Source of the DNA: Candidatus Woesearchaeota archaeon
Lineage (GTDB): Archaea > Nanobdellota > Nanobdellia > Pacearchaeales > UBA284
DNA length: 64,000 nt
NCBI GenBank assembly: GCA_964396475.1
Contig: CAYNFE010000004.1
Span: 6,519 to 70,518, forward strand
Direction: 5' to 3'
A program made the position numbers and the translations under genes. Positions 5,853 through 38,191 of this stretch are shown piece after piece; position 1 is the first letter of the stretch; every line of letters starts with the position of its first letter. Under the pieces are notes generated by a model. The model had not been told where the DNA came from. It did no database searches and was given only the letters and a program-made list of their open reading frames with translations.

Positions 5853-5999
5853 CTACCAACCTGCTTTTCCTGCTGATCCTATGACATAACCTACTAAAAG
5901 TCTAAGCTGGTCTCCTAAGAGAGCCCCAATAATTAAACCTACAATCAAGGCTATGATGATATACAACCAAAGTTTTCCTCTTTTACTTAATTTTGCCAT
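5853..5999 (-). CDS. Possible 48-aa single-TM membrane peptide (below the ORF-track cutoff)
   Basis: Manual translation of the minus strand gives MAKLSKRGKLWLYIIIALIVGLIIGALLGDQLRLLVGYVIGSAGKAGW*. It has a basic N-terminus and a hydrophobic helix. No clear SD-like motif upstream. Confidence 0.3.
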   Translation of the reverse strand: MAKLSKRGKLWLYIIIALIVGLIIGALLGDQLRLLVGYVIGSAGKAGW

Positions 6000-6033
6000 G
6001 CTATATTATTTCTTATATATTTTTAAATCTTTT

Positions 6034-6927
6034 TTATTCAAATATAAGAGAGGCATAACCAACAGCATTTGTATAATCTTTTGATATATCTCCAGAAGTA
6101 TAATACTTAAGCAAAGAAGCTTTTTTTGCACCAATTTTTTTACAAAATTCTATTGCAGTAACTATAACTGCAGATCCACATATAGTTGTTTTTGTAGCTT
6201 CATTGTAAAATCCTTGGCTATCTAATTTAATAATATGATTAATTGCTTTTCTATCAAGTTCTTTAAGTCTTGTCTTTGCCTCGCTCGCTGGAAAAGGAAT
6301 AAATCCATAGCTCTGTCCATAGTGTGTAAAATCAGAACTAGCAATAACACAAACATTTCTATTCATCTCTTTTACAGTCTCTGCTATTTTTCTTCCAAGT
6401 GCTAAAAGTTTGTCATATTCTAGAGTTGAGATAATAATTGGCACTATCTTAAATTCTTTCTTTACAATCTTAGAAACAAATTGCAAAAAAGGTAACTGTA
6501 CTTCTAGACTATGTTCATACTGATGAGCTAATTCATCTTCCTGTAATCCTAGATGAGATGTCTGTTCCATAATTTTGGCTCCAAGCTCAGTATCATTTTT
6601 TACGATACCTAAAGGACTGGAAAAATCTTCAAAAGTCAAAGAAAAATTAGCTTTTCCTTGTCCAGTATGATTTGGCCCAAGAAGAATGAAAGTATCTGGA
6701 AAACTTTTTTTATTTAGTTCTGCTAATTCTTTATAAGCCCAAGCTGCACATTGTCCACTATAGATATAACCAGCATGTGGAACAATTAAACCATAAATCT
6801 TTTTTTCCTTGAGTGGAATTCTTGGCATTCCTGGTCCTAGATAGTGTTTGAATGATTTTTTTATTTCCTCATCCAACTCTGTCTTATCTGCAGAATAAAA
6901 TTGTCCAGTTACAATTGGTTTTCTCAT
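6034..6927 (-). CDS. MEMO1-family protein (AmmeMemoRadiSam system protein B)
   Basis: MRKPIVTGQFY...VPHAGYIYSG...SSDFTHYG motifs typical of the Memo/AmmeMemoRadiSam B family; 297 aa. Confidence 0.85.
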   Translation of the reverse strand: MRKPIVTGQFYSADKTELDEEIKKSFKHYLGPGMPRIPLKEKKIYGLIVPHAGYIYSGQCAAWAYKELAELNKKSFPDTFILLGPNHTGQGKANFSLTFEDFSSPLGIVKNDTELGAKIMEQTSHLGLQEDELAHQYEHSLEVQLPFLQFVSKIVKKEFKIVPIIISTLEYDKLLALGRKIAETVKEMNRNVCVIASSDFTHYGQSYGFIPFPASEAKTRLKELDRKAINHIIKLDSQGFYNEATKTTICGSAVIVTAIEFCKKIGAKKASLLKYYTSGDISKDYTNAVGYASLIFE

Positions 6928-29811: not shown

Positions 29812-31425
29812 ATGCCTATCAAAAATAAACTTAAAATTGAATTAGCTGGTTTCTGGCCAAAGATAGAGATAAAAGACAAAAGATTAAGAAAGAAAATTGG
29901 CAAGGATTTCTTAGGGCCAGATTATATAGTTAGTTTTCTCCAGAAAGCTGTTTACAAATCAGTGCCTTTAATAAAAGGATTAGAAGAAGAAATACTGAAA
30001 GAAGAAAATATAAGAGAGACAGCATTCAATAAATTTTCAAGTTCTATGCTAAGAGGTCACTCTCTTGACGGCACTGCAGGAATTGCTTTAAAATTACATG
30101 GAAGCAAACTTCTTGATTCTGCTCTTACAGGAATACCATTTTCAAGAAGTTTTGTGACTAGTGGAAGAAGAGCGAAAATACATAAAGAAAACATAATAAT
30201 TCCAGACTCTATTGATAAAAAATATGATCTTAGAAAAGAATATGTAGAGACATCAGAAACAGCTATAGAAATTTATGATAAAATAATTGATAAAATTGGA
30301 AGCAAACAATTAGCTTCCAAAGTTGTTCCTTATAATAATCCATGTGATCTCTATATAAGGTTGCCTTTAAGTTCTATCATGACTCTTGCTCTTGAATTAG
30401 AACAGCAAAAACAAACTAATCAGATATGGATGCCAAGAGAAGTGGAAGAATTAATATCAAGATTAGAAAATGATATACTGCCTGATATAGATATGAAAAT
30501 AATGTATGATACAAGAAAAGCTGCTCTTCGTGATACTTATCTTCATTGGTATGTATTCAAAGGTAAAGATGATAATTTTGCAACAGAAATGGCAAAATTA
30601 TTGGGAAATCCTCTTGAACCAACAATAATACCAACTTCAATAAACATACAACCAACTAAGGGCTTGAGAAAGAAATTAAAATATCTAGAAGAAAAAATAA
30701 GTTTCACACACACTATTTTAAATCCTAAAGAATTATCAAAAGCTTCCAGAGAAAACTTGTTGTTGTTAAGAGATATAGTTGATTCTTATAACGATTCTAT
30801 CTCATTAAAAACAGTAAGTAGTTTATCATGGCGCGTTTGGAGTGAGCAAAAAAGACATTCAACTTTAAGACAGTGCGTAGAGTCAATATATAGAGCAAGT
30901 GACAGAGCATATGAAATCATAGAATCATCTAGAAATAAAAAAGATCTTTTCAAGAGATCAGAAAAAGCTTTTGTTATTCCACCAGAAATAAAAAAAGATA
31001 AAGAGCTTCTCAGAGATTATGTATGGATATCTTCAAAACAACACCTATTAAGAAAAGAACTTCTTGATGCTAGTATAGAAGAAAGAGATGCTATCTATAT
31101 TGTTCCAAGAAATACTAGATTAAGGACAGTAGAGACGTATGATTTGATAAACCTAATTGATTTGGAACTTCCATTAAGAACTTGCACAACTTGTGAGCCT
31201 GAAAGACGAGCAACTGCAGAAAAGAAAGCAGAAATTATAAAAGACACCTTAAGTGGTATTATCCCAGAGCTCAATTATTTAATAGGCCCAAAATGCATTC
31301 TTGGTTATTGCACAGAGCCAAAATTCTGCGGAAAAATCCTAGAATACAATCCAGATTACAGTGTATCTTTGCATAATCATATAAGAGAAAATCTGATAAA
31401 GAAGGCTTCAGAAAAAATAAGTTAA
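29812..31425 (+). CDS. Hypothetical protein; possible divergent tandem ThyX-like (flavin-dependent thymidylate synthase fold) protein
   Basis: Residues 345-360 (EQKRHSTLRQCVESIY, nt 30844-30891) resemble the ThyX motif RHRxxSxxxxSxRY. IVPRNTRLRTVETYDLINLIDLELPLR resembles the ThyX helix block. The N-terminal half carries a degenerate copy (RGHSLDGTAGIALKLHG...SGRR). Confidence 0.35.
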   Translation: MPIKNKLKIELAGFWPKIEIKDKRLRKKIGKDFLGPDYIVSFLQKAVYKSVPLIKGLEEEILKEENIRETAFNKFSSSMLRGHSLDGTAGIALKLHGSKLLDSALTGIPFSRSFVTSGRRAKIHKENIIIPDSIDKKYDLRKEYVETSETAIEIYDKIIDKIGSKQLASKVVPYNNPCDLYIRLPLSSIMTLALELEQQKQTNQIWMPREVEELISRLENDILPDIDMKIMYDTRKAALRDTYLHWYVFKGKDDNFATEMAKLLGNPLEPTIIPTSINIQPTKGLRKKLKYLEEKISFTHTILNPKELSKASRENLLLLRDIVDSYNDSISLKTVSSLSWRVWSEQKRHSTLRQCVESIYRASDRAYEIIESSRNKKDLFKRSEKAFVIPPEIKKDKELLRDYVWISSKQHLLRKELLDASIEERDAIYIVPRNTRLRTVETYDLINLIDLELPLRTCTTCEPERRATAEKKAEIIKDTLSGIIPELNYLIGPKCILGYCTEPKFCGKILEYNPDYSVSLHNHIRENLIKKASEKIS

Positions 31426-31426
31426 A

Positions 31427-31789
31427 ATGTTAGATTTATTTGAAGATTTAAAAGGTTTCACAAAACTAGGTTTATATTTGGGTTCTGATAAAAATAATAA
31501 ATTAGCAATGAAAATAAAAGAATCCAGCAGTCTTACAATCAATACAAAAGTGGAAGATATTTTTCTAGGAAGAGATGCTGTAATTAGTGGGAAAAAAATC
31601 TATGGCAAGATAATCATAGCAGAATTTGATGACAGAAAATATATTATTGCTCCTTCTAATGTAAATAACAATCCTATTGTCCTGTATAATTATCCTCATG
31701 AAATCTATACTTGGATCTGTTATGATAAAAAAGAAAAAGATTTAGATGAAATTGCTCTAAATGTTATTAAAGAAATAGAACAAAAATAA
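31427..31789 (+). CDS. Hypothetical protein (120 aa), translationally coupled to the upstream gene
   Basis: The ATG lies 1 nt after the upstream TAA stop; no motif recognised. Confidence 0.5.
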   Translation: MLDLFEDLKGFTKLGLYLGSDKNNKLAMKIKESSSLTINTKVEDIFLGRDAVISGKKIYGKIIIAEFDDRKYIIAPSNVNNNPIVLYNYPHEIYTWICYDKKEKDLDEIALNVIKEIEQK

Positions 31790-31814: not shown

Positions 31815-32033
31815 TTAAATAATTCCTTCCAAATTTTCTAGCTCAGATTCACTAAATTCATTCATATTTAAGTTATCTATCTCATTACTTAAATCTTCTA
31901 AACTGTTTAATTCTGAGTTTAATTCTTGAGCCTGGGCTTCTGCGCTAGCTTCTCCACAACCTGTTCCTGAAACAAAAATAAAACAGAGGAGTAGTATTAT
32001 AGTTAAGACTACTGCTAAAATTTTTGATTCCAT
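31815..32033 (-). CDS. Small exported/lipoprotein-like acidic protein (72 aa)
   Basis: The start is moved to MESKILAVVLTIILLLCFIFVSGTGCGEA..., a signal-like helix ending in a Cys, followed by an acidic tail. The K/R-rich extension in the track is the off-frame readout of the upstream gene's poly-Glu tail. Confidence 0.45.
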   Translation of the reverse strand: MESKILAVVLTIILLLCFIFVSGTGCGEASAEAQAQELNSELNSLEDLSNEIDNLNMNEFSESELENLEGII

Positions 32034-32040
32034 CTTATTT

Positions 32041-32946
32041 CTATTCCTCCTCTTCCTCAAGCTCTTCTTCCTCTTCTGGTTCCTCTTCTTCTGCCTCTTC
32101 TTCCTCTGGTTCTTCCTCTTCACCCAGTTCTCGGCATTCTCTTAATTCTTGGATTATCTCTTTAAGAGTCAGATGAGCTTCTTTAAGCTTAAGTTGAGCA
32201 AGTTGCATTTTTGCTTGAGCCTCTCTTAAAATCTCAGTATCTGGCTCATGATTTTGCACAGACTCCATGAACTGTTCCCATAGATCTCTAGATTCATCAT
32301 AACTAATTCTTGCTTCAGCTATCTGTCCATTAAACTGTTCTACAAGAGGATCTATGTTTGTAGTGTTTGTACAATTCCACTTCTCTATAAAGTCATCTAG
32401 TTTTGTTTCAAGATGCTCGGCTCTTTGAATCACCAAGCCTGTCCTATGTAAAAGAACAATTCTTTTTGTGATTCTAAATTTAAGATGGGATTCTTTTATC
32501 AAAGCACGAATCTCTTTGATAATTTCCTTAAGTTCTTCTCTATCTGCATCTTCAATCCCTGAGCAAAGTTCTTCTAACTTATCTTTTTGGCTTTCTATTG
32601 TTTCTTTTAGTGTCTCTTTTTCTTCATCAGTTAGCTTTGGATTCTTGTCAATCCTCTCTTTAAATGCTTCAAAAATATCTTCATTTCCTGAACAAACCCT
32701 TAAAAGAACATTTTTCACAAGCTGATTAGCTGCATTTTTTATTACAATGCACTCTTCTTCTTCACTATTCTCACATTTCTGAATTTGCTGTTTTATCTGC
32801 TCTCTAAATGTATTTTCTTGTATGAACTTCTCTCTCACACCTTCAACACTTTCAGTTACCCAAGCTTTTTGATCACCAGCAGCAAAAACTGAAGGAACCA
32901 TAGCCACTATCAAAATAAGGGCTATAAATAAAGCTATAAATTTCAT
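32041..32946 (-). CDS. Secreted coiled-coil protein with poly-Glu C-terminal tail
   Basis: N-terminal signal peptide MKFIALFIALILIVAMVPSVFA|AG, heptad-rich helical body with several Cys, and the tail EEEPEEEEAEEEEPEEEEELEEEEE. Confidence 0.6.
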   Translation of the reverse strand: MKFIALFIALILIVAMVPSVFAAGDQKAWVTESVEGVREKFIQENTFREQIKQQIQKCENSEEEECIVIKNAANQLVKNVLLRVCSGNEDIFEAFKERIDKNPKLTDEEKETLKETIESQKDKLEELCSGIEDADREELKEIIKEIRALIKESHLKFRITKRIVLLHRTGLVIQRAEHLETKLDDFIEKWNCTNTTNIDPLVEQFNGQIAEARISYDESRDLWEQFMESVQNHEPDTEILREAQAKMQLAQLKLKEAHLTLKEIIQELRECRELGEEEEPEEEEAEEEEPEEEEELEEEEE

Positions 32947-32951
32947 CTTTT

Positions 32952-33896
32952 TTAACCTCCTTTCAAATTTTCTTTAGTATTTAATTTATCATAAACAGAA
33001 TATACAATTTTTTGATATTTGGCAGGAATTTTTGCAGCTAATGACATAGCCTTATTTAATTTTAGTTCAGCAAAATAATTGATTATCAAAAGACCTTGAG
33101 CAATAGCAGTTAATTCTTTTAAATCAGGATATGTATTCAGAAGACCAGTGAACTTAGGATCTTCCTTTTTAATGTAAATCTCACCAGCATTCTTACTGTC
33201 CGGAGCTTTATATTCATCTGTTGCTGTAAGGCCGCCAAGAGTTCCACCCTCATTAGCAATATCCTCTATTATTCCTTGCATATCAGATAAGAAATTATAG
33301 CTTTGAGCCTTGCACTCTAGTTTTTCAGGCTCATTTATTTTTACATCCTCTACTATCTGTTCTATTGTTCTGTTTGTTCTTTCTGGTTCAAGTAATCTCC
33401 TCAAACTCTCCAAAGATTCATTTACAAGAGGACCAAGTCTGTTTAAATTATATCTACTAAATCTCTCTCCTCTTAAAACTTGTTTGAGATGTTTTGGCAA
33501 AAAATCACTTATAGGATGTGATATATGTTGATTACCATTTCCTTCATATATTACAAATGTAGAACCTATTTTTACCACATCTCCAGTATCTTGGCCATTT
33601 TTCTTTACAAAATAAAAAATACCTTCTTCTAAAGTGGCAAAACCTAGATTTTTGTCAGTTAGATTAACCCATCCTCTCTCAGGGCATATCTCGTATCCTG
33701 GTAAAAGTTCCTTTAATGCATAAGGAACACTTGCATTTAGGTCATTAACTTGATCCATATTTAATGATATCCTGCTCTTATAATGTATTTTAGTATGAGT
33801 TTCAAAACCACCCCCAAAACCTTTTTCTTTTAATATCTCTTCATCTGTCATAAATCCTTCTATATCAGGCTTGCTTGTTTCTTTTTTGTCTGTCAT
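32952..33896 (-). CDS. Hypothetical cytoplasmic protein (314 aa)
   Basis: Long ORF with normal composition, 5 nt upstream of the next gene in the operon; no motif recognised. Confidence 0.6.
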   Translation of the reverse strand: MTDKKETSKPDIEGFMTDEEILKEKGFGGGFETHTKIHYKSRISLNMDQVNDLNASVPYALKELLPGYEICPERGWVNLTDKNLGFATLEEGIFYFVKKNGQDTGDVVKIGSTFVIYEGNGNQHISHPISDFLPKHLKQVLRGERFSRYNLNRLGPLVNESLESLRRLLEPERTNRTIEQIVEDVKINEPEKLECKAQSYNFLSDMQGIIEDIANEGGTLGGLTATDEYKAPDSKNAGEIYIKKEDPKFTGLLNTYPDLKELTAIAQGLLIINYFAELKLNKAMSLAAKIPAKYQKIVYSVYDKLNTKENLKGG

Positions 33897-33902
33897 TTTA
33901 TT

Positions 33903-34691
33903 TTATAGATAATGGGAATTTGGCTTTTTTTTATCAGTATTAATTAATTCATCAATAATATTAGAATCTAATACATCCTTAACAAGATCTATCTGTTTAG
34001 GATTAGTTTCTTCTTTTACTTCTATTTCCTCAAGGATTTCATCAATATCAATTATATTGACAGGATATCCTCCACTTCTAACACTCTCTATTTTTGGTTT
34101 ATTTTTATCTTCTTTTGGTTCATCAAGATCAATCTCATTATGTGAGTATTCTACCTCATTTTCTCTTTTTTTATTAATATCAAGATCTAATCTAGTTTTA
34201 GCAGAAAAATCTCTAACATACTCTCTAAAATCTCTAAGTCTTTGATAGATTATTTTATCCTCATCAAAACCTTTTTTCTTGAAATCTTTGAGAATATCAT
34301 CTATCATTCCAATTTTTTCATAATTGCCTAGAATAATATGATCAATTTTTCCTTTAACACCATTTAAGAAAAGCTCATATAACCCTTTTGAGCAAAGAAA
34401 CCATATATTGGCTTTTTCATTGGCTTTGTTCTTAAGATAAACAGCTCTATGATTCAATGTAGAGATAGAATTTCTGTTTTCATTTTCCTTTCCAAAGTCA
34501 TAATCTACTATTATTATTGTTTTTTTATCTGTCTTAGGGGATTTCTCTATTTTTGGTCCAAAAAAATCATCTTCATTCTCTGGATCTGTTTTAATTTCTT
34601 CTTCTGTTCTCTCAATCTTTGTTCTCCCATTCAAAAGTTCATCTAAATCTATTGGTTTTTGGTTTATTTTTTCTGATTCCATTTTAAACAT
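33903..34691 (-). CDS. Hypothetical acidic protein (262 aa), first gene of the operon
   Basis: Long ORF, 6 nt upstream of the next gene; no motif recognised. Confidence 0.6.
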   Translation of the reverse strand: MFKMESEKINQKPIDLDELLNGRTKIERTEEEIKTDPENEDDFFGPKIEKSPKTDKKTIIIVDYDFGKENENRNSISTLNHRAVYLKNKANEKANIWFLCSKGLYELFLNGVKGKIDHIILGNYEKIGMIDDILKDFKKKGFDEDKIIYQRLRDFREYVRDFSAKTRLDLDINKKRENEVEYSHNEIDLDEPKEDKNKPKIESVRSGGYPVNIIDIDEILEEIEVKEETNPKQIDLVKDVLDSNIIDELINTDKKKPNSHYL

Positions 34692-34693
34692 GA

Positions 34694-34717
34694 AAGCAGG
34701 CTACTGGCCTGCCTGCT
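34694..34717. promoter_or_regulatory. GC-rich inverted repeat/hairpin (AGCAGGC-N-GCCTGCT; alternative GCAGGC TACTG GCCTGC)
   Basis: Seen directly in GAAAGCAGGCTACTGGCCTGCCTGCTTTTT. It sits 3 nt upstream of the minus-strand ATG at 34691 and within the divergent intergenic region. Confidence 0.35.
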
Positions 34718-34845
34718 TTTTACAGTTCTATTAAAGAAATTTAATTTATAAAAACACTTTCAGGAGAAAGTTGAGATATGCTTTATTAAGCTTTATATCC
34801 ATAAGATTTGGTAAAGTTTTTAAAGTATCTTCTTTTTTATGTTAT

Positions 34846-35592
34846 ATGATAAAGGCTAAGGTAATAATTATAATAATTGCATTTATTCTAGCTCTGTCTT
34901 TAGTTCAAGCAGCTACAATTTATGGAACAATTTATGGACCTGATTTGGAACTAGCTGAAAAAGCTCTGGTTGAGATAAACAGCACTCCAAAACAAAACAT
35001 GGTTGCTAATGATGGTACTTATTCTTTTATTGTATCTAATGGAACCTATGAAATTGAAGCATATTATTCTTATCAAGGAGTTTTGCTTTATGATAAAGAA
35101 ACAATAACCTTACCAAGTGAGGGAGATTTTGTTATTGATCTCATATTATTTGAAACAGTAGATATAGAAGACTTAGAATTTGATGAAAATGAACTTAAAT
35201 TGATTGAAGAACTATTAAAAGAAAAGAAAGGGATAAGTATAGGATTAATTATTGGAATAATAATCGCAGCTATTGCTATAGTAGCTATAATGATTTATTT
35301 CTTTTATAGAAAATCCATAGATAGATTAAGAAAAAAATTACTCAAAAAAAAGAGGAAGAAAAAATTCAAGGCAAAAGCAGTTAAAGAGAAAGTTAAGCCA
35401 ACAGGAGATGAAGTCATGACCCAAACTCTAGCCATTTTAAAGAGAGAAAAAAGAGTTACACAAAAAGATTTAAGAAAAGAGCTTGGAATAAGCGAGGCAA
35501 AAGCATCTCTAGTAATAACAGATTTAGAAAGCCAGGGTAAGGTAAGAAAGATCAAAAAAGGACGAGGCAACATAATTATTTATCAACCATAA
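34846..35592 (+). CDS. Membrane-anchored winged-helix protein: extracytoplasmic CarboxypepD_reg-like domain, TM helix, Lys-rich linker, C-terminal wHTH
   Basis: Starts at MIKAKVIIIIIAFILALS (signal/anchor). The ATIYGTIYGPD...NDGTYSF..SNGTYEIEA pattern fits the carboxypeptidase-regulatory fold. A TM helix GLIIGIIIAAIAIVAIMIYFFY follows, and the C-terminal TQKDLRKELGISEAKASLVITDLESQGKVRKIKKGRGNIIIY resembles a MarR-like wHTH. Confidence 0.6.
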   Translation: MIKAKVIIIIIAFILALSLVQAATIYGTIYGPDLELAEKALVEINSTPKQNMVANDGTYSFIVSNGTYEIEAYYSYQGVLLYDKETITLPSEGDFVIDLILFETVDIEDLEFDENELKLIEELLKEKKGISIGLIIGIIIAAIAIVAIMIYFFYRKSIDRLRKKLLKKKRKKKFKAKAVKEKVKPTGDEVMTQTLAILKREKRVTQKDLRKELGISEAKASLVITDLESQGKVRKIKKGRGNIIIYQP

Positions 35593-37861: not shown

Positions 37862-38191
37862 TTACTCTATTTTGCTTCCTAAGTCAATATCTTTTTCAGG
37901 AGCTAACAAAATAACCTTACTCTTATCTTTATTCACAGCAGCCATAATCATACCTTCACTCTTAATTCCTCTTATAGTCGCTGGCTCAAGATTTGTAAAT
38001 ACAACACATAACTTTCCTTTCAATTCTTCTGGTTTGTAATGCTCTTTAAGCCCAGCAACCAAGGTCTTCTTTTCTCCACCTAAGTCTATCTCTAACAGAT
38101 ACAATTTCTCTGCATTTGGATGGTCTTTGACATCCAGAATTTTCGCAATCCTAAGATCAAGTTTTTGCCACTCCTTAAATGCTATTTCCAT
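37862..38191 (-). CDS. Stand-alone tRNA-binding domain protein (Trbp111/EMAP-like, equivalent to the MetRS C-terminal domain)
   Basis: DLRIAKILDVKDHPNAEKLYLLEIDLGGEKKTLVAGLKEHY...GIKSEGMIMAA is the OB-fold tRNA-binding motif. Confidence 0.8.
   Translation of the reverse strand: MEIAFKEWQKLDLRIAKILDVKDHPNAEKLYLLEIDLGGEKKTLVAGLKEHYKPEELKGKLCVVFTNLEPATIRGIKSEGMIMAAVNKDKSKVILLAPEKDIDLGSKIE

Follow-up and report, generated by a model that had tools for sequence, protein, structure and literature searches.

CpxP of Escherichia coli is an exported helical envelope-stress protein encoded divergently from its own membrane sensor (cpxRA), on which it feeds back; Spy and BaeSR form a comparable pair. 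Transmembrane transcription regulators (TTRs), such as ToxR and CadC in bacteria and ArnR in archaea, are the subject of a survey by Demey et al. 2023 (PMC10269533). In Castelle et al. 2021 (PMC8204110), Module 98 is a set of 51 protein families that Pace- and Woesearchaeota have in common and that are specific to them. DPANN archaea account for much of archaeal diversity; their envelopes and signalling are barely known, and most of their lineage-specific genes are unannotated. The locus described here is a cluster of four genes, g1 to g4, on the minus strand of a 64,000-nt stretch (the window) of the Candidatus Woesearchaeota archaeon assembly GCA_964396475.1. The window lies on contig 4 of a genome of 609,805 bp (8 contigs, about 90% complete), the relatives of which are deposited as Candidatus Pacearchaeota. 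Divergent from the cluster is a plus-strand gene encoding a TTR (34846..35592). The locus is tentatively read as an exported envelope module under TTR control, with g1 and g2 inserted behind the same promoter.

The list of open reading frames (ORFs) agrees with the initial annotation, made from the sequence alone, of four genes of 262, 314, 301 and 72 amino acids (aa) separated by 6 (g1-g2), 5 (g2-g3) and 7 nt (g3-g4). The products of g1 (33903..34691) and g2 (32952..33896) are predicted to be cytoplasmic, that of g3 (32041..32946) exported and all-helical, and that of g4 (31815..32033; 72 aa from the ATG) small, membrane-anchored and lipobox-like. Tight packing by itself is little proof of a unit because it is ordinary here, gaps of 10 nt or less separating 19 of the 49 same-strand neighbour pairs in the window. 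That the four-gene unit is more than chance is told by the order kept in six other genomes, by fusions of g1 and g2, and by the class-wide pairing of g3 with the regulator.

Divergent regulator and control region

The TTR opens with a hydrophobic signal/anchor segment. A beta-sandwich ectodomain resembling CarboxypepD_reg comes next, then an acidic linker, a transmembrane (TM) helix, a poly-Lys linker and, in the cytoplasm, a DUF7343 winged helix. The hydrophobic stretch between ectodomain and poly-Lys linker reads GLIIGIIIAAIAIVAIMIYFFY. In Pfam, DUF7343 was matched at E 2.7e-12, with HTH_24 and MarR below, while CarboxypepD_reg scored weakly (E 0.003); no paper mentioning DUF7343 was found. 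A DNA-binding domain and a TM segment in one polypeptide define TTRs, and by sequence both are present. Orthologues are 35-71% identical, and a TTR profile matched 247 of 401 genomes.

Profiles of g3 were built from 7 sequences for the order and from 14 for the phylum. The former matched 19 of 301 genomes; the latter 156 genomes in a 401-genome sample of the phylum (about 39%; 155 of 400 among high-quality ones), with E values down to 1e-47, most of them 1e-10 or better. The gene is single copy in nearly every matched genome, and most matches reside in other families of the class. The matched proteins share a C-x6-8-C pair and the motifs L(T/S)xEEK, R(I/V)GxxI...LExKL and KEA(H/Q)xxL(K/R)xI; coiled-coil noise as a source of the matches was ruled out by these shared motifs and by the conserved genomic context.

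Distances between g3 and the TTR were derived by combining the printed coordinates of both profile searches, 111 genomes having both positions listed. The two genes sit on one contig, at most 5 kb apart, in 94 of them (median 660 bp between matched segments), every one of these pairs being divergent. The remaining genomes carry g3 and the TTR on separate contigs, often at contig ends (15 genomes), or about 50 kb apart (2 genomes). The pairing spans genomes of 0.6-1.9 Mb and GC contents of 28-44%. The membrane-tethered winged helix-turn-helix (wHTH) protein, at first taken for a mere neighbour, is the most consistently linked partner of g3.

A conserved element made of a B recognition element and a TATA box (BRE/TATA) is found at 34744..34760 on the minus strand (AAAGTGTTTTTATAAAT). 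Near-identical elements (AAAGTTTATTTATAAAT) recur at a corresponding position in 13 loci from across the class, and the match to the archaeal consensus suggests that this is the operon promoter. Farther upstream, between the operon and the TTR gene, are two direct (A/G)TAAAGC boxes (34779..34796, minus strand; ATAAAGCTTAATAAAGCA). In 13 such intergenic regions, ranging from that of the window to those of distant class members, one to four (A/G)TAAAG(C/T) boxes precede the TATA box, and in three loci (L037, L039 and L040) palindromic boxes occur (TAAAGCTTTA). The hexamer TAAAGC/GCTTTA occurs 28 times in the 2.7 kb of these 13 regions against a background of 1.09 per kb, an approximately tenfold enrichment; none of 1000 dinucleotide shuffles reached 28 occurrences (shuffle mean 5.7). 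The 17-mer holding both window boxes is found once in the 610-kb genome. The boxes are a candidate operator of the TTR.

The GC-rich hairpin reported in front of the operon is also there, at 34693..34719 on the minus strand (AAAGCAGGC-N9-GCCTGCTTT), inside the predicted 5' leader and 10 nt ahead of the probable start of g1. It folds at -13.5 kcal/mol (z -2.4) and occurs once in the genome. Copies recur in L009, L012 and L014, all of them g1-carrying loci, each one, folded singly, at z -2.4 to -4.8; stem substitutions keep pairing via U-G wobbles, in the sense strand only. The hairpin is absent from L011, L015, L027 and L028 among the loci checked. Searched against Rfam, the window RNA gave a neighbouring tRNA as sole match, and the hairpin has no Rfam family. 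It is probably an RNA-level element of g1-containing variants, a stabiliser or an attenuator, and lies outside the class-wide module.

Gene products and variants of the cluster

The N-terminal hydrophobic segment of g3 peaks at residues 3-21 (KD19 2.91), and residues 1-24 have the layout of a signal peptide (MK, FIALFIALILIVAMVPSVF, A-AG), with n-region, h-region and small-x-small site; all homologues show the same layout (ASA-AMQQ). Signal peptide, cysteines and the acidic tail of 25 residues are as first annotated. The protein has six cysteines. Their number is always even (6 or 4) among homologues, C192 and C271 being lost jointly in two lineages and C85 and C128 in one, and the C58-x7-C66 pair is universal. 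Because cysteines are even in number and lost in pairs, three disulfides, C58-C66, C85-C128 and C192-C271, may be inferred. N-x-S/T sequons lie at 191 and 194 and recur in homologues. Paired cysteines, signal peptide and recurrent sequon together would place g3 outside the cytoplasm. An AlphaFold2 (AF2) model from a 7-sequence alignment, shallow as are all the alignments behind the AF2 models, consists of five long helices in a bundle of about 250 residues (predicted local distance difference test, pLDDT, 72.8), the best Foldseek neighbours of which are generic long helical bundles, none of them significant. Mature g3 has a pI of 4.5. The poly-Glu tail varies from 0 to 25 acidic residues among homologues, 25 in the window and none in L011; it is not conserved and, encoded by a GAA/GAG run, looks like repeat slippage. 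Among Pacearchaeal loci g3 is 45-73% identical, versus 23-39% for g1 and g2.

In g4, as aligned in 11 homologues, an N-terminal hydrophobic helix (maximum KD19 3.0) precedes the conserved motif VSG(A/T)GC, and the tail, acidic and rich in Leu, closes with ELExLEG(I/L). The mature product contains 13 D+E and no K+R (pI 4.05), in keeping with the small, acidic, lipobox-like protein originally proposed. Homologues start at MESKI; a 102-aa frame opening at a GTG reads the poly-Glu codons of g3 (32041-32123) in another frame, and its K/R-rich extension is spurious. In the window the motif is FVSGTGC, in which the G at position -3 departs from the lipobox consensus [LVI][ASTVI][GAS]C. A cysteine occupies this site in 10 of the 11 homologues aligned, whereas that of L028 stands two residues away; the L025 homologue lacks it. 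In distant loci a protein of 63-88 aa directly downstream of g3 has a canonical lipobox (LMAGC, LTGC, LIGC, LFGC, LAAC) and an acidic, Leu-periodic tail, and by these features appears to be g4. One Woesearchaeal-type locus has an extra exported, Q/E-rich protein of 179 aa between g3 and g4 (L041:891-1430). An RNA 3'-phosphate cyclase gene directly follows g4 in three distant class members (L035:2631-3719, L038:2843-3916, L040:2697-3785), its product being RtcA-like by eye, from MIxxDGSxxEGGGQxxR; Pacearchaeal loci have an NrdG-like radical-SAM activase or a ThyX-like gene downstream of the cluster instead.

Loci and genomes in the g1-g4 searches are labelled L and G, representative proteins P. 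The g1-g2-g3-g4 order is found in L009 (CP061211, same genus), L010, L011, L012, L013 (in part) and, on a metagenome contig, L014. Fusion of g1 and g2 into one protein of 580-599 aa is seen in L010, L011 and the representative P0008; the fusions are direct evidence, at the sequence level, that the two act together. Other arrangements feature an extra first gene of 155 aa (L009, 2185-2673), an 89-aa gene between g1 and g2 (L014, 3250-3519), g2, a 57-aa gene (5963-6136), g3 and g4 but no g1 (L015), a 139-aa gene and a g1-like gene of 201 aa but no g2 (G001, same genus), a g1-like domain of 127-132 aa only (G015 and G018), or g3 and g4 alone (G011 and G007). L015 keeps g2 with g3, g4 and the TTR despite different flanks. 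Small extra cytoplasmic genes between the conserved promoter and g3 are known from five loci, where they measure 155, 139, 89, 86 and 57 aa (L009:2185-2673, L024:425-844, L014:3250-3519, L007:831-1091 and L015:5963-6136, respectively) and match no family; this slot behaves like a gene-gain hotspot. The distribution points to g3 and g4 as the conserved core, a class-wide family, and to g1 and g2 as later, narrow additions.

Neither g1 nor g2 has a hydrophobic segment (maximum KD19 0.8 and 1.3, respectively), as expected from the lack of signal sequences originally noted. The g2 protein has a conserved N-terminal motif, KP(N/D)IEGFMTDEE. Its AF2 model comprises a helix and a five-strand meander (pLDDT 62-70) and a confident C-terminal helical domain (pLDDT 80-91). 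Searched against 1.84 billion representatives, the g2 profile matched 19 proteins, of which about 18 are real; a 50-residue stretch of it was matched eight times in P0020 (3039 aa; E 9e-5), probably a repeat or low-complexity artefact. The gene is present in 7 of 41 relatives. By its sequence distribution it is, like g1, a narrow, variable and lineage-specific addition.

The Shine-Dalgarno (SD) sequences of g3 and g4 are embedded in the coding ends of the preceding genes, that of g4 within Glu codons of g3. The final sense codons of g2, AAA GGA GGT (KGG; window 32944-32963), are the GGAGG SD of g3, 8 nt before its ATG. The GG ending is found in about 5 of approximately 17 g2 members, the LKGG end recurs in about five distant homologues, and members with the SD in a longer spacer have other C-terminal ends. 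The LKGG end is a nucleotide-level constraint mimicking a conserved protein C-terminus. A ubiquitin-like or sulfur-carrier reading of it was ruled out, as the codons are the ribosome-binding site of g3; a beta-grasp fold with a free GG does not fit either, given the rarity of GG and the predicted helical C-terminal domain.

The first ATG of g1 is not conserved. Because the start in homologues corresponds to the second ATG (34682, MESEKINQ...) and the closest relative reads ATA at the first, the true start is probably at 34682, for a product of 259 aa. Homologues occur in L009, L012, L014 and L024, and as fusions to g2 in L010, L011 and P0008. The protein has an alpha/beta domain of about 110 aa between acidic disordered tails. 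AF2 was run on g1 and g2 as one chain, the in-frame TAA of the window being read as Gly, a construct justified by the natural fusions; the model is of low confidence (pLDDT 51) and displays no interpretable g1-g2 interface. Internal homology between g1 and g2, suggested by MAFFT pairing of IYxxLKxxDPRxF segments, was ruled out by hhalign (probability 0.07%).

The g1 core resembles receiver (REC) and pseudo-receiver domains (CheY-like; KaiA N-terminal domain) in its predicted beta-alpha-beta layout and in an Asp after beta1. Its alpha/beta domain (residues 57-140, pLDDT 52-62) found receiver/flavodoxin-like folds and a dehydroquinase at the top of the Foldseek matches, the best being XynC REC, BaeR, RssB and KaiA-N. 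These matches are non-significant (E 0.1-1; top matches 0.12-1, with a probability of up to 0.9 from a weak model). In contrast to true receivers, g1 has no Pfam Response_reg match, no histidine kinase lies near it, and no Asp is conserved at the end of beta3, the aligned position being S, K, T or E (LCSKG, ISTKS, ISKKE, IYSED); nor are the Thr/Ser and Lys that receivers have in beta4 and beta5 kept, a Gly in beta4 being the sole invariant residue. Since both the Asp after beta3 and the Response_reg match are missing, g1 would be at most a pseudo-receiver, and it is a lineage-specific accessory gene.

No significant match to g1-g4 was obtained in Pfam, NCBIfam, PHROGs or PADLOC. For g1 no Pfam or NCBIfam family appeared at E <= 1 except the chance-level NCBIfam streptosactin (E 0.87); the naturally fused g1-g2 and the small accessory genes found in relatives had no PHROGs or PADLOC match, and both gave nothing above noise in family libraries. 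Profiles of g1, g2, g3 and the TTR retrieved nothing significant from PDB sequences. At E < 0.001, Foldseek found no match to the g3 model in PDB and BFVD, nor to the g1-g2 model in PDB. No relatives were found in viral contigs. A word-index protein search (g2, the g1 alignment and a 17-sequence g2 alignment) returned the window's own proteins and P0018 only, and is uninformative on family size; a Pacearchaeota metaproteome paper names no protein of this kind. As judged from these searches, none of the four proteins seems to belong to a characterised family, and the initial annotation, which could assign them to no known system, holds in this respect, as it does in the conservation of gene order in other genomes. 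Its view of the operon as ORFan suits the narrowly distributed g1 and g2, but not g3 and g4, the family of which reaches about 39% of the genomes sampled across the phylum.

Two flanking genes, a ThyX-like one of 537 aa downstream (window 29812-31789) and a tRNA-binding (Trbp111-like) one of 109 aa upstream (37862-38191), are syntenic with the cluster in several relatives, so part of the local gene order is inherited synteny. The GC content of the window ranges from 0.26 to 0.35, with no compositional break at the locus.

A proposed envelope role and its alternatives

The tentative reading as an envelope module may be spelled out as follows. The locus would be one transcription unit served by an archaeal promoter, strong and conserved, that the divergent TTR most likely controls through the TAAAGC boxes. 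The ancestral payload would be g3 and g4, class-wide. Exported via Sec, g3 would form an elongated, disulfide-stapled helical bundle kept at the cell surface; g4 would be a tiny membrane- or lipid-anchored protein that, through its acidic amphipathic tail, probably binds g3 and holds it at the membrane's outer face. The two would constitute a cell-envelope component, structural or stress-protective, its level being set by the TTR, whose beta-sandwich ectodomain may sense envelope state, possibly g3 itself. In one Pacearchaeales subclade g1 and g2, and in some genomes further small genes, would have been inserted between promoter and g3, g1 and g2 working jointly as co-regulated cytoplasmic accessory factors. 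An envelope role is the most likely because of the location, conservation and control logic of g3.

Several points weigh against this reading. The genomes compared are kin, so the 94 divergent pairs out of 94 overstate independence, and some of the within-family synteny could be plain inheritance. The module is missing from about 60% of the sampled genomes, and is accordingly not essential. A structural or stress role of g3, which has no fold match, rests on location and regulation logic; the VSGTGC of g4 in the window, with its G at -3, is not a canonical lipobox; the g1-g2 model is of low confidence (pLDDT 51). The links of the TTR to the boxes, of g4 to g3, and of g3 to the TTR ectodomain are inferred, as is co-transcription of the operon.

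Export and membrane anchoring, predicted for g3 and g4 from sequence features, would equally suit a surface device by which an episymbiont contacts its host, g1 and g2 being dedicated cytoplasmic helpers. DPANN archaea are generally thought to be symbionts, with many lineage-specific families extracellular (PMC8204110), and the top Foldseek neighbours of g3 include helical surface proteins of parasites and of Borrelia, but at E >= 0.35 none of these neighbours is significant. Family searches with g3 and its homologues gave no domain typical of adhesins, lectins or enzymes, and the module resides in genomes of such different size and GC content (0.6-1.9 Mb, 28-44%) that hosts presumably differ. 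Host-contact proteins usually diverge fast and expand. In contrast, g3 is single copy and far better conserved than its cytoplasmic partners, which weakens the adhesin-type interpretation first considered and leaves a role in host contact doubtful. It is unlikely, too, that the genes have no common function and are just packed neighbours in a streamlined genome, their order being inherited synteny and g1/g2 being unrelated to g3/g4. The ordinary spacing of the cluster, the flanking ThyX-like and tRNA-binding genes syntenic in relatives, and the lack of g1 and g2 in most genomes that have g3 and g4 (G001, of the same genus, lacking g2) are in line with this explanation. Yet g1 and g2 invariably lie behind the conserved promoter and ahead of g3, where gaps of 5-7 nt leave no room for an internal promoter, and the SD of g3 is inside g2; L015 retains g2 with g3, g4 and the TTR though its flanks differ, and the fusions tie at least g1 to g2.

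The acidic g4, together with the poly-Glu tail of g3, could make up an extracellular matrix binding or buffering Ca2+, Mg2+ or metals, as the 25 acidic residues closing g3, the low pI of its mature form and the composition of mature g4 (13 D+E, no K+R) would allow. Such a matrix is very improbable: most homologues have a short or different tail and L011 has none, the conserved parts of g3 are the helical core and the cysteines, and a conserved cluster of His, Asp and Glu residues is not evident, with H178 and H258 replaced in several members. The ion-binding matrix initially suggested is weaker because the tail is not conserved. The chance that the cluster is chromosomally integrated cargo, whether mobile, viral or defensive, is close to nil. 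ORFan-like proteins and upstream cluster genes varying between relatives would be expected of such cargo, but PHROGs and PADLOC were not matched, viral contigs contain no relatives and BFVD no matching viral fold; the composition of the locus equals that of its surroundings (GC 0.29-0.33), and single-copy genes, a fixed chromosomal context and a conserved promoter argue against it as well.

The reading as a TTR-controlled envelope module can be extended. Throughout the class Nanoarchaeia (Woese- and Pacearchaeales), TTR, g3 and g4 might form a hitherto unrecognised circuit that senses the envelope, and in it g3 would be both output and extracellular ligand or inhibitor of the TTR, a CpxP-like autoregulation made from unrelated parts, with g1 (as a pseudo-receiver) and g2 adding cytoplasmic input/output. 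Such a circuit is quite unlikely; if real, TTR, g3 and g4 would be the first DPANN-specific signalling pathway with defined operator, regulator and effector. Under the more cautious reading as an envelope module, four hypothetical proteins turn into a defined, testable module, comprising a regulator and its candidate operator, a strong and conserved promoter, a secreted helical protein with predicted disulfides and a mini-lipoprotein. The locus would be a marker for envelope biology in uncultured Woese- and Pacearchaeales, and an instance of a shrinking genome in which new cytoplasmic genes (g1 and g2) have come under a regulated promoter already in place.

Comparison with known systems

Like CpxP, g3 is predicted to be all-helical and exported, and is divergent from the gene of a membrane protein with an extracytoplasmic domain, with which it shares an intergenic control region; its promoter, too, is strong. 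Membership in the CpxP/Spy family is supported neither by sequence nor by fold. The g3 protein and 13 homologues have no LTXXQ Pfam match, CpxP, Spy and ZraP are not among the PDB profile matches of g3, and CpxP and Spy are absent from its top 50 Foldseek matches in PDB. The modelled five-helix bundle of about 250 residues differs from the short, bent helical-hairpin dimer of CpxP and Spy; g3 is twice as long as CpxP, probably disulfide-bonded and partnered with a lipoprotein, and a one-component transmembrane wHTH protein stands in place of a two-component pair. The cpxP-cpxRA locus may be taken as the closest analogy to g3 and its TTR, and as an analogy only.

The neighbour of g3 shares with the surveyed TTRs (PMC10269533) the combination of DNA-binding domain, TM helix and extracytoplasmic domain, and the location of the regulator gene beside its likely target. 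The wHTH domain (DUF7343) is C-terminal and the ectodomain N-terminal, the reverse of ToxR, and the ectodomain is CarboxypepD_reg-like. To our knowledge, no conserved TTR target that pairs a secreted helical protein with a mini-lipoprotein has been described before.

Module 98 (PMC8204110) has the same taxonomic range as the g3, g4 and TTR families, and its members are mostly unannotated, many being predicted as membrane-bound or extracellular. Families are listed there, rather than this gene module; the families of g3, g4 and the TTR probably belong to it.

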